IMG/VR virus record: IMGVR_UViG_3300005613_000011
Span: 32,001-96,000 of that record
Length of the DNA: 64,000 bases
Strand: one strand, 5' to 3'
Source: a virus
Shown: positions 45,936-64,000 of the stretch, in pieces
Layout of the letters: the number at the start of each line of letters is the position of its first letter
How positions within the stretch are numbered: position 1 is the first letter of the stretch
Program-made: the position numbers and the translations under genes
The notes under the pieces: generated by a model
Told to the model about the DNA's origin: nothing
Database searches by the model: none
Seen by the model: only the letters and a program-made list of their open reading frames with translations

Positions 45936-46436
45936 ATGAAAGAGATTTTAAACGAAAGGATCAAGTCAGAAATTTTATTTTTAATTGCAGAAGATGGTTC
46001 TACCATAGGTGCGGTTACTAGAGAAGAGGCGTTGCAGAGGTCGAGATCTGCCGGATTGGATCTCGTGCTCATTTCGCATAAAAATAATGATAAACCACCG
46101 GTTTGTAAGATATTGGATTATGGTAGGATGAAATATGAAGAGAAGAAAAACAACCACAATAAGAAGAAATCGGTAGTTACGAAGGAGATTAGGCTCAGAA
46201 ATGCTATGAATATTTCAGATCATGATCTTGATATCAAGCATAGGCAGATGAGAAAATTTCTTGAGAAGAAAAATAAAGTAAAATATGTATTTGTTGTGAA
46301 GGGAAGACAGCGTAGAATGATGGACGAAGCAAAAGAAAAATTAAATGAAAATTTGTCTCAGTTTAAAGATATTGCTACGTGGGATGAACCAAAAACATCT
46401 GATGGTACAATAATTGTATTGTTGTCCCCAAAGTGA
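45936..46436 (+). CDS. infC: Translation initiation factor IF-3
   Basis: LNERI...GLDLVLIS...PPVCKILDYGRMKYE...KEIRL...ISDHDLDIK...KFLEKKNKVK...GRQ. Confidence 0.92.
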   Translation: MKEILNERIKSEILFLIAEDGSTIGAVTREEALQRSRSAGLDLVLISHKNNDKPPVCKILDYGRMKYEEKKNNHNKKKSVVTKEIRLRNAMNISDHDLDIKHRQMRKFLEKKNKVKYVFVVKGRQRRMMDEAKEKLNENLSQFKDIATWDEPKTSDGTIIVLLSPK

Positions 46437-46494: not shown

Positions 46495-47496
46495 ATGCCA
46501 AAGGAAAATGTGGATCAACACGAAGATGCATACAAGATTATGGGAACAAAGGAATTCAATGACGAGCTAATAGCTCTTCTAAAGATCCGCGCTCCGGTTG
46601 TTTTTCTCACCTGTCGTGAAGAAAAACGTATGCTGAATTATTTTAGGCATCTTTCTGAGGCTAGAGGTTTTAAGACGTATACGTGGGATCTTTGTAACGG
46701 TATTAGAAATCTGATCAGCGGCAAGCAGGAAAAAACAACTGGGGACGATTGTACTGAACCAGACAATGCCTTGAATGTCATGATAGAGGAAGCAAGTAAT
46801 GACAAAGATCAAAGAGTGAAGCTTGAAGCAAGCAAAATAAAAGGTAAGATTTATTTATTGCTGGATTTTTATAAGTTTCTAGATGAACCAACTACTGAGC
46901 GTAGAATAAAAGAGTTTTCCAAAATCGATTCTATGACAACTATTATTTTGACCGGCCCGACTCTTGATTTGCCAGTAAGTATTGAGAATCTATTCAGCGT
47001 CCTTGATTTTCCTTACCCTAACAATGAGGAAATCAGAGGTTCGATTACTAATCTTTTGAAAGCTGTTAAAAAGGAAAAGGTTGATCTGCATGATAAGTTG
47101 CAGAAACAGTTTAAAAAGGAACAGCATGAGATAATTGGTTCGGTTACAGGTTTGACACTTTCTGAAGCTCAAAAAGCGTTGTCTAAATCTGTTGTTGTAA
47201 AAGCCTCATTTGATATACCATCTATTCTTGCGGAGAAGAAGCAATATATTCGCAGGCGTGGTATTTTGGAATATTACGAACCCAATCTGACTATGGCAGA
47301 TGTTGGTGGTTTGCATAGAATGGTCAGGTGGTTGAAGCACAGAAAGCTGGCGTTTAGTCCCGAAGCCAGAGAGTTCGGGATTCCAGCCTTAAAAGGTTTT
47401 CTTGCAGCTGGTGTTCCTGGATGCGTACTAGCTGATACGAAAATCATGATAAAAAAGATTTCTAGCGAAGGAAAACATAAAGTTATCGAATTTTAG
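46495..47496 (+). CDS. AAA+ ATPase (Ycf46-like), N-terminal half fused to a 24-aa split-intein N fragment
   Basis: TCREEKR...LLLDFYKFL...GLTLSEA...EKKQYIR...DVGGLHRMVRWL...GFLAAGVPG|CVLADTKIMIKKISSEGKHKVIEF*. Confidence 0.85.
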   Translation: MPKENVDQHEDAYKIMGTKEFNDELIALLKIRAPVVFLTCREEKRMLNYFRHLSEARGFKTYTWDLCNGIRNLISGKQEKTTGDDCTEPDNALNVMIEEASNDKDQRVKLEASKIKGKIYLLLDFYKFLDEPTTERRIKEFSKIDSMTTIILTGPTLDLPVSIENLFSVLDFPYPNNEEIRGSITNLLKAVKKEKVDLHDKLQKQFKKEQHEIIGSVTGLTLSEAQKALSKSVVVKASFDIPSILAEKKQYIRRRGILEYYEPNLTMADVGGLHRMVRWLKHRKLAFSPEAREFGIPALKGFLAAGVPGCVLADTKIMIKKISSEGKHKVIEF

Positions 47497-47548
47497 AAGT
47501 TTAAGAGAGATTTCAGAAAACCACCAAGAAGCAGATGGAGAAACTATT

Positions 47549-48652
47549 ATGCAAATTGGAGAAGAAACAGAGATTACAATATCTGATTTTTTTAAATTAA
47601 CAGCAAAAGAAGGAGGGAAATACAAGGTGAGTACACCAGATGGGTGGTGTGATTTAGGAGAACTGGTCAAGAAAAAGAACAAGAAGTGTTATTCGATTAG
47701 GCTTGATAATGGAATGGCAATGGCTGGTTCTGAAGATCACTTAGTTGAGACAAAAGAAGGATGGAAAAAACTCAAAGATTTAGAAGTTGAAAACGATATG
47801 ATTTTAACGTCTGATGGTTTTTGTGAGTTAGTTACTATAGAAAGTATTGGTGTTCATGATACTTATGATTTCGAGGTTTTGAGTGAAAAACACAGGTATT
47901 TTGCGAATGGAATTGTATCACACAATTCAGGTAAAAGCTTGATTGCAAAGGCATGTTCTAGCGAATACGGGATTCCTTTGCTCCGTCTTGATTTTGGAGC
48001 GTTGTTTAGATCACATGTTGGAGAATCAGAGGCCACAACAAGAGATGCTATTAAACTGGCCGAGGCATGTGCTCCGAGCGCCCTTTGGTGTGATGAAGTA
48101 GAAAAAGGCTTGTCAGGAACTAAGTCAAGCGGTTCGACGGACGGTGGTACTACCGATAGGGTTGTGTCTACTTTTTTGACTTGGATGCAAGAAAAGACAT
48201 CTGAGGTCTTTGTGGTGGCAACTGCAAATGATATAGAAAAGATTCCCGTTCCATTTTACAGGCGTTTTGATGAAATCTTTTTCGTAGATTTTCCGAATAA
48301 GGAAGAAAGGGTAGAAATCGCTCAGGTGTTGTTGAGAAGATACAAAAGGGATTATAAGAAATTTGATTGTGAAAGAATTGCTGAACTATCTAATTTGTAT
48401 ACCGGATCAGAAATAGAGAAGGCAATTACTATCGGGCTGTTTGAAGCGTTCGAACATAAAAGAAAATTGACTACGGATGATATTGTCAATGCTTTTAATA
48501 CGTTTACTCCTCAATATAAAATGAGGGAAGAGTATTTTGATAATATGAGAGATCATGCACAATCTTGTGGTTTTGTATTTGCGAACGAAGAAGTAAAAGA
48601 AAGTGCTGAAGGCGCCGGGGGCGATAGTATAGGAATAGATTTAAGCGAATAA
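47549..48652 (+). CDS. Split-intein C fragment (126 aa) fused to the C-terminal half of the AAA+ ATPase
   Basis: GGAG SD then ATG; SEDH block B; TYDFEV...YFANGIVSHN|SGKSLIAKA...LLRLD...VGESE...WCDEVEKG...ATAN...RFDEIFFVDFP. Confidence 0.88.
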   Translation: MQIGEETEITISDFFKLTAKEGGKYKVSTPDGWCDLGELVKKKNKKCYSIRLDNGMAMAGSEDHLVETKEGWKKLKDLEVENDMILTSDGFCELVTIESIGVHDTYDFEVLSEKHRYFANGIVSHNSGKSLIAKACSSEYGIPLLRLDFGALFRSHVGESEATTRDAIKLAEACAPSALWCDEVEKGLSGTKSSGSTDGGTTDRVVSTFLTWMQEKTSEVFVVATANDIEKIPVPFYRRFDEIFFVDFPNKEERVEIAQVLLRRYKRDYKKFDCERIAELSNLYTGSEIEKAITIGLFEAFEHKRKLTTDDIVNAFNTFTPQYKMREEYFDNMRDHAQSCGFVFANEEVKESAEGAGGDSIGIDLSE

Positions 48653-61756: not shown

Positions 61757-64000
61757 ATGGCTAAAAATAAAAGTGATATAATAGTTGACAATTTGAAAGG
61801 TTTTATTCGCAAAGGCGCTTCTTCTACTCCCGAAGGTTACGTTCCTACTGGTCATTTCAGTCTAGATTTCGTAATCAATCACGGAGAGCTACCAGAGAAA
61901 ATAGATTTATCTGAATTGGAAGGATATGATCCTTCTGAAAATCTGGGTATTCCCCTTGGTAAGCTTGTAATGTTGTACGGAGAAGAGGGAGGGGGGAAAA
62001 GCTCAATTGCATACAGAATATCTGGTTATGCTCAAAAGTTAGGTTATCCTGTTGCATGGTTGGATACCGAACATAGTTTTGCAGAGAATCTCGCTAAGAT
62101 CAATGGGGTTGATGTAGACGAGTTGTATTATTCTACAATGTCTAATCCTAAAGATCCTGACAAGGTTTATTTTGCAGAAGATGTTTTTGATTCTATTATT
62201 GAATTGATTAAGTCTGGTGTCAAAGTAATTATTCTCGATTCGGTTGCGAATCTTGTTCCAAAAGAAAGGATGGAAGGTAGTGCTGAGAAGATAATTGTTG
62301 GGAAACTCGCCAGATTGATGTCTGAAAATCTTGGTAAATTGGTTGCTTATGCCGCAAAGTTTGGAACTTTATTGGTTTTTATTAATCAATTAAGATTCAA
62401 GATAGGCATAATGTTTGGATGTTTCCATTATAATTCTCGTGTGGTTTTATCTGATGGGACAACGAAAAAAATTGGTACTATTGTCAATAATAAATTAGAT
62501 TTGGAAGTTATGTCTTATAATCCTGATACAGGAGATATAGAGCCAAAGAAGATTATAGATTGGCATGATAATGGTAGTTTAACAGAAGATGAATGCTTTT
62601 TGAATTTTGTTGTAGAAAAACACGGAGGGAATGGAAGGACTAGGTTTTCATGTACTCCAAATCATAAAATTTTTGTCCCTGAATCTAACGAAAAGTGTTC
62701 TAACTATAGCAAAACTATTAGTGCTGGAGATTTGGAGATTGGAGACGAAATATTAGTATCTCAACCTTACTATTTAAATGACGTGCAAAGACAAATTGTT
62801 TATGGGTCTATTCTTGGAGATGGGAATATAAGACCTGGTAGATATAATAGTTCTTGTAGTAATTTGAGGATTGGTCATGGTCGAGAACAAAAAGATTATT
62901 GTCATTGGAAGCAGGAAATTCTTGAGCCTTGGATTGGGTATAGTAAAAACAAGGAAGATAGATACGATTTTGAAACTATCCCTATGTTAGAATTGACGAA
63001 ATTGCAGTATTCCACTAAATATATAACACCAGATTCTAGAGATCCTAGAAATAAAGAAAAAATTATTCCAGACGAAATTATTGATAATTTAGGTGAATTA
63101 GGGCTTGCTATTTGGTATCTTGATGATGGAACATTTGGTGGTCATTATTCTAAGTGGGGAAATGGTAAGTCTACTATTTGTTGTATTAAATTTTCCAATA
63201 GAGATAAAATGATGAAGACTTTTGATAAATTTGGTTTATGTCCTAAGTTAAAAAAAGTTGGATTTTTCTTTAATTCTGAAGATACAAGAAAATTACATTC
63301 TATTATATGTAAATATGTTCCACCTTGTATGGAATATAAAATTCATCCTAACTTTAGAGGTAAATATGATTTTGATATTGACGATCAAGATGACAATATA
63401 AAAGAATTGAGAGCAATATCAGCAAAGATCATTGATATTCATGAGAAGGCACCTACAAGAACTAAAAAGAAATTTGATTTAACGATAGAAGATAATGCAT
63501 CATATATTGTTGATGGAGCTATAGTCCATAATTCTCCGGAAACTACTCCTGGTGGTATGAGTTTGAAGCACAATTCATCCTTGATTATCAAGATCACAAA
63601 GAAGAAAAGTAGAGATGCCGAAATAGAAATTCCTGGCGAAGATGGAAAAATGAAGCTTATCGGCAGGAAGTCATACATGAAGGTTGAAAAGAATAGGTTT
63701 GCCAAGCCTTGTTTTGAGAATATAGAAGTTCCTATTTATTACATGGAATATTTTCCCAACATAGAAGAAATAATGTTTGAAACTGGTCGCCAGTTAAAAG
63801 TTATTTCTGTCAGGAAGGGAGTATTCAAGTGGACTGATCAAAAAGGCGAAAAACATGAAGCTGAAGGTAGGTCTGATTTTATAGAGCATATAAAATATAA
63901 CGAACTTCGGTATTCATTGGCGAAGCATCTCTACGATGTTGCGAATGAAAGCGAAACTATTTTGCCTCCAGAAATAGTTAAGTGGTTGAAAAATCATGAA
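61757..64000 (+). CDS. recA: RecA recombinase with intein; 3' end outside the window; not in the ORF track
   Basis: My translation: PTGHFSLD...LYGEEGGGKSS...WLDTEH...ILDSVANL...LARLMS...FINQLRFKIGIMFG|intein|SPETTPGGMSLKH...KVEKNRFAKP. GGAG SD; no stop before the window end. Confidence 0.92.
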   Translation, partial: MAKNKSDIIVDNLKGFIRKGASSTPEGYVPTGHFSLDFVINHGELPEKIDLSELEGYDPSENLGIPLGKLVMLYGEEGGGKSSIAYRISGYAQKLGYPVAWLDTEHSFAENLAKINGVDVDELYYSTMSNPKDPDKVYFAEDVFDSIIELIKSGVKVIILDSVANLVPKERMEGSAEKIIVGKLARLMSENLGKLVAYAAKFGTLLVFINQLRFKIGIMFGCFHYNSRVVLSDGTTKKIGTIVNNKLDLEVMSYNPDTGDIEPKKIIDWHDNGSLTEDECFLNFVVEKHGGNGRTRFSCTPNHKIFVPESNEKCSNYSKTISAGDLEIGDEILVSQPYYLNDVQRQIVYGSILGDGNIRPGRYNSSCSNLRIGHGREQKDYCHWKQEILEPWIGYSKNKEDRYDFETIPMLELTKLQYSTKYITPDSRDPRNKEKIIPDEIIDNLGELGLAIWYLDDGTFGGHYSKWGNGKSTICCIKFSNRDKMMKTFDKFGLCPKLKKVGFFFNSEDTRKLHSIICKYVPPCMEYKIHPNFRGKYDFDIDDQDDNIKELRAISAKIIDIHEKAPTRTKKKFDLTIEDNASYIVDGAIVHNSPETTPGGMSLKHNSSLIIKITKKKSRDAEIEIPGEDGKMKLIGRKSYMKVEKNRFAKPCFENIEVPIYYMEYFPNIEEIMFETGRQLKVISVRKGVFKWTDQKGEKHEAEGRSDFIEHIKYNELRYSLAKHLYDVANESETILPPEIVKWLKNHE
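62420..63532 (+). mobile_element. RecA intein with LAGLIDADG endonuclease (371 aa)
   Basis: MFG|CFHYNSRVVLSDG...CTPNH...VYGSILGDG...LAIWYLDDG...FDLTIEDNASYIVDGAIVHN|S. Confidence 0.92.

Follow-up and report, generated by a model that had tools for sequence, protein, structure and literature searches.

A probable VidaL-type split intein in the Walker A loop of a two-gene Ycf46-like AAA+ ATPase of a very large phage

Natural split inteins with a short N-terminal intein fragment (IntN) are few, only four or five having been characterised, among them AceL TerL, GOS TerL, VidaL and PolB16 (PMC13014065, PMC11923092). They are broken at one of two sites, either before helix alpha-1 (S1; VidaL and PolB16) or after it (S2; AceL TerL and GOS TerL) (PMC13014065). 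VidaL, a split intein of known structure (PDB 6vgv/6vgw), has an IntN of 16 amino acids (aa) and the S1 site, and the IntNs of AceL TerL and GOS TerL measure 25 aa and 37 aa (PMC13014065). The atypically split PolB16 OarG has a 15-aa IntN, also ending at S1 (PDB 8cpn/8cpo; PMC10189870). Contiguous inteins within P-loops, such as DnaB-b, MCM-a and RFC-S, are well known (PMC4760082). In the fractured genes described by Dassa et al. (2009), one half of the host protein with its IntN, a free-standing endonuclease gene, and the C-terminal intein fragment (IntC) with the other half of the host protein follow one another, and AAA+ ATPases are not among the hosts named for this arrangement (PMC2677866). 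In the literature searched, no AAA+ host has been reported for a characterised atypically split intein. Here, we analyze a stretch of 64,000 nucleotides (nt) from a metagenome assembly (virus record IMGVR_UViG_3300005613_000011), hereafter the window, to which the coordinates given below refer as a whole. Two adjacent genes on a common strand of this window, gene 1 and gene 2, very probably encode an AAA+ ATPase whose Walker A loop is interrupted by a naturally split class-1 mini-intein of the VidaL (S1) type, inserted between Gly and Ser of the motif.

On sequence evidence, genes 1 and 2 read as the halves of one Ycf46-like AAA+ ATPase. A Pfam scan detected the AAA domain (PF00004) in gene 2 from residue 127 (E = 4e-20), and the homologues of gene 2 align with it starting at residue 127/128. 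Residues 12-310 of gene 1 correspond to positions 12-316 of the phrog_8638 profile and residues 127-338 of gene 2 to positions 316-532, with neither gap nor overlap of the exteins at the junction. In mycobacteriophage NiebruSaylor, the matches to gene 1 and gene 2 likewise abut to the base (59829 / 59828), and gene 1 is 26% identical to mycobacteriophage AAA-ATPases over 85% of the query. The proteins nearest to gene 1, at 52-71% identity, lack an intein and consist of a single chain of 545-557 aa. Such intein-less relatives read GxPG[GCT]GKS or a near variant at the junction, which is GCAGCGKS in the nearest of them, and in 56 of 80 metagenome loci Walker A was judged to be intact. More distant homologues (~30% identity) are named Ycf46 or SpoVK/Ycf46/Vps4 AAA+ ATPases by their sources. 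The Walker A motif of the ATPase (GVPG-SGKS) is complete only in the spliced product, and neither half alone has a full P-loop.

The sequence between these two halves carries the marks of an intein. The NCBIfam model of the intein C-terminal region, TIGR01443, scored 26.6 bits on gene 2 against a cut-off of 15.6. The corresponding N-terminal model matched gene 2 weakly (E = 0.054) and only from model position 15 on, as would be expected if the first strands are encoded in another gene. When the IntC was compared with the PDB by phmmer, VidaL (6vgv) came first (E = 3.8e-10), IntC residues 5-129 aligning with chain residues 22-145, and the C-terminal end of chain 6vgv_A is SHA-SGK. The IntC contains block B as S-E-D-H at residues 61-64, YDFEV at residues 106-110 with D107 of block F, and SHN at residues 124-126. 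G32, H64 (block B), D107 (block F) and N126 are invariant across a 39-sequence alignment (A5) and are all present in the window IntC, and the catalytic residues C1, H64, D107, H125, N126 and S+1 are all kept at the locus. The AlphaFold (AF2) model of the IntC, built with 39 homologues, has a pLDDT (predicted local distance difference test) of 92.9. A Foldseek search of the PDB with this model returned VidaL first (template modelling score (TM) 0.87, root mean square deviation 1.8 A) and then gp41-1 and DnaB inteins, the best 50 matches being inteins or intein-like HINT domains. The agreement of the intein, AAA and colinearity evidence at both open reading frames (ORFs) is far beyond chance. 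These data suggest that the split intein most likely joins the two ATPase fragments after translation. In addition, the net charge in the window is +2 for the IntN and -8 for the IntC, and across the family the IntN is basic or near neutral and the IntC acidic. Opposite charges of IntN and IntC are usual in split inteins, and as a sign of trans-splicing this complementarity is only suggestive.

Much of this had been anticipated in the original prediction, made from the DNA alone. It had described a two-gene layout with a 24-aa IntN, a 52-nt spacer, a GGAG and ATG before gene 2 and a change of frame, all of which the ORF reading bears out. Its proposals that gene 2 opens with the rest of a HINT domain, that splicing rebuilds Walker A as GVPG-SGKS, that the intein resembles VidaL down to the SGK C-extein, that the host is Ycf46-like and that the locus has no endonuclease agree with the profile scores, the colinearity across both genes, the read-through in intein-less homologues and the searches reported here.

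The position of the break is indicated by structure models. In the IntC model, residues 1-10 are coil and residues 11-21 form helix alpha-1. Because alpha-1 thus lies in the IntC, the break is placed before it, after strand beta-2, which corresponds to the S1 site; an S2 (AceL-type) split was rejected on the same ground. The window IntN would then consist of strands beta-1 and beta-2 plus an 8-residue tail. Two naturally fused relatives help to delimit this tail. L063, with the same host and the same insertion site, is a compact mini-intein whose IntN residues 1-16 run straight into the start of the IntC, the tail being absent. In the model of P0130, the pLDDT is 92 for IntN residues 7-14, which are predicted as a strand, and drops to 67 in the tail, and a disordered 13-residue linker is followed by a strand and a helix, the whole intein superposing on VidaL with a TM of 0.89. 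Alignment A3 was dropped for modelling, P0130 being from a different AAA subfamily. From these two fused forms, the core of the IntN therefore appears to equal the 16 residues of VidaL, residues 17-24 being extra.

The same split is found well beyond the window. Counting the window, 13 independent loci with a 24-residue IntN at this site were retrieved from viral and metagenome contigs, and a protein search added ~10 further N-half clusters ending in the 24-aa IntN motif. A viral-contig search with gene 1 alone had no match, and the related loci were found by alignment-based search. IntN residues C1, V2, T6, K7, I8, K11, K12, S14 and G17 are invariant in the 13 loci. Several of these invariant residues are encoded by 2-5 synonymous codons across loci, and selection therefore appears to act on the peptide. 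For the same reason, conservation of the IntN core at the DNA level only was rejected, an argument which does not settle the tail. The tail itself is conserved at G17 and in the hydrophobic residues at positions 21 and 22. Between loci, the inteins are 46-71% and the exteins 31-59% identical, and recent horizontal spread of the intein is unsupported since the two ranges are similar. These comparisons point to a genuine, ancient split on which selection acts. Homologues with the same split (13 loci), with a contiguous intein (L063, P0130 and L046) and without an intein have all been found. The features of the window locus are listed in Table 1.

Table 1. Positions of the features of the split ATPase locus in the window.
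Feature	Position	Strand	Basis or remark
Gene 1	46495-47496	+	ORF, 333 aa, TAG stop 47494-47496
N-extein of AAA+ ATPase, 309 aa	46495-47421	+	N-terminal domain, first AAA-core strand, Walker A half
GVPG half of Walker A, end of N-extein	47410-47421	+	ORF reading
IntN, 24 aa	47422-47493 (with stop to 47496)	+	ORF; length always 24 aa in related split loci
Cys1 (Cys310 of gene 1), directly after GVPG	47422-47424	+	ORF reading
52-nt spacer between both genes	47497-47548	+	Without endonuclease gene
Ribosome-binding site and start of gene 2, GGAGAAACTATTATG	47537-47551	+	Probably inherited from deleted endonuclease cassette
GGAG of gene 2	47537-47540	+	8 nt before ATG
Gene 2	47549-48652	+	ORF, 367 aa, frame differs from gene 1
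IntC, 126 aa	47549-47926	+	HINT fold from helix alpha-1 onward
C-extein, 241 aa and stop	47927-48652	+	PF00004 at gene 2 residues 127-247; phrog_8638 316-532
Ser+1-GKS	47927-47938	+	Directly after IntC SHN
Walker B LWCDEVEK	48083-48106	+	Motif in C-extein
Sensor-1 ATAND	48218-48232	+	Motif in C-extein
YRRFDE	48257-48274	+	Motif in C-extein

The origin of the split can be traced through the related loci. Eleven of the 13 split loci were seen whole, and nine of these eleven carry a nuclease ORF of 299-368 aa between the intein halves, within 907-1175 nt (for example L001:2081-3004, L011:1874-2785 and L043:4472-5380). Two of these ORFs were scanned with Pfam and contained NUMOD3 motifs and a TnsA-like PD-(D/E)xK domain, and no sequence relative was found in the PDB. 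The nuclease may represent a little-described type of homing endonuclease; an assignment to the Vsr-like/EDxHD family of Dassa 2009 found no support. The 5' untranslated region (UTR) of the nuclease gene is conserved and comprises TAGTCC, a hairpin with compensatory changes and then the ribosome-binding site AGGAGACTATTATG, and in four other loci the start of the nuclease gene reads GGAGACTATTATG or GGAGACTGTTATG. Window positions 47537-47551 are identical at 15/15 nt to the start region of the endonuclease ORF in L043 (4460-4474), which suggests a clean deletion in the window, and no second match to the start region of gene 2 with up to two mismatches occurs elsewhere in the window. Neither an endonuclease domain nor an endonuclease gene was found at the window locus. 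The nuclease gene of the relatives had no match across the 113-kb virus record of which the window is a part, a record that is only ~20% complete. No plus-strand terminator was found in the 52-nt spacer. Remnants of the nuclease may be recognized in two relatives. In L046, IntN and IntC share one ORF and are separated by a 23-residue remnant similar to the active-site region of the nuclease, and L054 has no nuclease gene, with ~20 codons upstream of its IntC resembling the nuclease C-terminus. From these sequence comparisons, we consider it fairly probable that a free-standing gene for a NUMOD3 and TnsA-like PD-(D/E)xK nuclease broke the intein at the beta-2/alpha-1 loop and was later deleted in the window, from the nuclease ATG to the IntC ATG, a loss that would have left the nuclease ribosome-binding site driving gene 2. 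We also observed that some members of the IntC family (P0140, P0150 and P0149) have nuclease-like fragments (e.g. the NUMOD3-like GKNNPFYGKHH) fused in frame upstream of the IntC.

In the mechanism that we propose, gene 1 would supply the N-extein with the basic 24-residue IntN, and gene 2 the acidic 126-residue IntC with the remaining part of the ATPase. The two fragments would associate and complete the HINT fold, in which Cys1, the block B His, the block F Asp, the His-Asn pair and Ser+1 would carry out standard protein trans-splicing. The product would be a protein of ~550 residues with the Walker A motif GVPGSGKS.

Several observations weigh against this mechanism. Inteins without an endonuclease are expected to decay eventually, and in the homing cycle loss of the endonuclease, which has occurred in the window, precedes decay. 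The only other nuclease-less split locus, L054 (93-1148), has an in-frame stop in its N-extein at 657-659, which may reflect a pseudogene or a sequencing error. Position 9 of the window IntN is Met, against Lys or Arg in 12 relatives, and the last residue of this IntN is also off consensus. A 32-aa query covering the IntN had no match in the PDB, and alignments to 6vgv never extended into its first 21 residues. Close relatives are not all contiguous, the split being present at 13 loci, though an intein is absent from those whose exteins are most similar (63-71% identity). Among the relatives split in the same way, N-extein identity reaches no more than 48%, and no near-identical sequence confirms the exact junction. 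The lost endonuclease gene, the stop in L054 and Met9 would suit a decaying relic, whose halves no longer splice and whose ATPase is either dead or a non-covalent complex of two pieces. However, both ORFs are intact with every invariant catalytic residue kept, as are Walker B, sensor-1 and the Arg-rich motif of the C-extein. Moreover, the fold of the IntC is predicted with confidence and gene 2 has a good ribosome-binding site, and we regard such a relic as unlikely.

The element most probably has no regulatory role in the phage and is a parasite footprint that the phage tolerates. The original prediction had suggested a post-translational switch of the ATPase; we found no evidence for one, and the footprint of a deleted homing-endonuclease gene explains the arrangement better. 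The alternative that a nuclease-less split has been kept by selection as a control point is given little weight, slightly less than the relic. Here, the ATPase would be active only with both fragments and a reduced Cys1, a minor cis route by +1 frameshifting might exist, and the conserved 8-residue tail together with the acidic N-terminus of the IntC would form a capture device distinct from that of VidaL.

A programmed +1 frameshift at TTT TAG A (47491-47497) as a main route would produce a contiguous cis-splicing precursor with an 18-residue linker, besides or instead of the fragments. Upstream of gene 2, its frame indeed runs without a stop over 32 codons, back to 47453, and would be entered by a +1 slip on TTT-T; fused forms with linkers of 13-23 residues also occur (P0130 and L046), so the product could fold. 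However, at this base composition a stretch of 32 open codons would arise by chance with a probability of ~0.1, no Shine-Dalgarno-like stimulator lies ahead of the TTT, gene 2 is equipped with a ribosome-binding site and an ATG of its own, and the stop contexts of the IntN are not conserved. Nine relatives have the nuclease gene, ~1 kb, between the halves, and the family therefore would work in trans. We regard frameshifting as very improbable. A single-base assembly or sequencing error that broke one continuous intein-bearing ORF, conceivable in a metagenome assembly with the two frames one base apart and the downstream frame open across the stop, was rejected as the least probable explanation, since the IntN ends at the identical residue (24 aa) in 13 independent loci, the IntC begins with the family-typical MQIxEE behind a ribosome-binding site, identical 333-aa and 367-aa proteins are called on a European Nucleotide Archive (ENA) contig of another size (58 kb), and removal of one base still leaves 18 unrelated residues between the fragments.

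The split ATPase is flanked by an IF3-like gene on one side and by a DnaC-like loader and a DnaB-like helicase on the other, and the order IF3-like / ATPase / DnaC-like / DnaB-like recurs at related loci. The IF3-like gene lies directly upstream at 45936-46436 (phrog_9787, E = 2.7e-25); in most related loci, a ~170-aa ORF takes its position. Relatives were found on contigs of up to 548 kb and CheckV rated the 113-kb record as ~20% complete, and we therefore take the window to derive from a very large phage, the ATPase gene being placed in its replication module.

Other inteins were seen in the window and among the relatives of the ATPase. A RecA-like gene of the window (61757-64000; RecA E = 1.6e-40) contains a contiguous maxi-intein with a LAGLIDADG endonuclease domain at ~62420-63532 (LAGLIDADG_2 E = 2.2e-19; TIGR01443 22.4 bits). 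Its borders are ...IMFG|C and ...VHN|SPETTPGG, and it looks like an ordinary RecA intein allele. Immediately ahead of Walker B, relatives of the ATPase have another insertion site for inteins, AP|C...HN|C-[IC]-LWIDE (L011:2968-4623, L002:531-3582, L046:2018-4093 and L070). The intein at this site is a contiguous mini-intein in L011, and in L002 it is split in the conventional way, its halves flanking a zinc-ribbon/HNH-like ORF; the window ATPase has none there (APSALWCDE). L070:2953-6093 encodes a 1046-aa form of the ATPase whose P-loop is interrupted three residues further downstream by a large, distinct intein (GCGK|AQ...THN|S), which apparently begins with Ala rather than Cys.

The IntC also has a wide family beyond this ATPase. 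A phmmer search against 1.84 billion representative proteins gave 148 matches at E <= 1e-10. Among the best 150 matches, ~48 align from the first residues of the IntC at the N-terminus of the protein and ~20 more start near the N-terminus, and most of the N-terminal IntC matches continue with [CST]GK[ST]. The hosts among 117 scanned proteins include AAA (26), RecA/UvsX (16), DnaB-like (15), PhoH (12) and large terminase (6) proteins. These matches suggest that the window intein is one allele of a large VidaL-like family that interrupts the Walker A loop of phage proteins of the AAA+, RecA/UvsX, DnaB, PhoH and terminase types. In proteins P0159-P0168, which have Walker A-type C-exteins, a Cys-free N-terminal extension of 40-70 residues precedes the IntC.

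A short, chemically synthesisable IntN is valued by protein chemists, and the window adds a VidaL relative in a host not reported in the literature searched. The dozens of alleles, which include forms with the 24-aa IntN, with IntN residues 1-16 fused directly and with a linker, offer a variation that could guide engineering. Moreover, one gene family shows every stage of the homing cycle at a non-canonical site, namely the empty site, the compact mini-intein, the nuclease-split intein, the split without nuclease (the window) and the re-fused form with nuclease scars.

Compared with the systems described so far, the window intein shares a natural short IntN at S1 with PolB16 OarG, which was missing from the short-IntN inteins listed in the original prediction (AceL-TerL, GOS-TerL and VidaL were named correctly). 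In contrast to the window intein, PolB16 OarG has Ser1/Ser+1 and no catalytic cysteine, an IntC of 168 aa and a PolB host, and it matches the window IntC weakly (E = 0.056). AceL TerL and GOS TerL are similar in combining a short IntN with a long IntC, in their phage or metagenome origin and in their usefulness for semi-synthesis, but they are split after alpha-1 (S2) and their host is the large terminase subunit. With the P-loop inteins, the window intein shares the insertion within the Walker A loop of an ATPase, whereas those inteins are contiguous, often with an endonuclease domain, and this one is split over two genes. The relatives of the window match the layout of fractured genes, including a nuclease 5' UTR with a hairpin, yet they are broken at S1 and not at the usual endonuclease site, and their nuclease is of the NUMOD3 and TnsA-like kind, not GIY-YIG. 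The window itself differs from fractured genes in having only a 52-nt spacer without an endonuclease gene, a component that is present in nine related loci. VidaL is the best solved relative of the window IntC both by sequence and by fold. Like the window intein, VidaL is Cys1-dependent, lacks an endonuclease domain, is broken before alpha-1 and has an SGK C-extein, and because of this C-extein it also appears to sit in a Walker A loop. The two differ in their hosts, that of the window being a Ycf46-like AAA+ ATPase, in their identity of only ~27%, and in the IntN, which in the window has 24 aa with a conserved 8-residue tail as against 16 aa in VidaL. The earlier proposal of a new short-IntN intein thus holds in so far as this is a new VidaL relative, and needs amendment in that it is not isolated, the 24-aa IntN being present at this site in at least 13 independent loci. 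Rather than a new kind of element, the window intein is a real new relative of VidaL.

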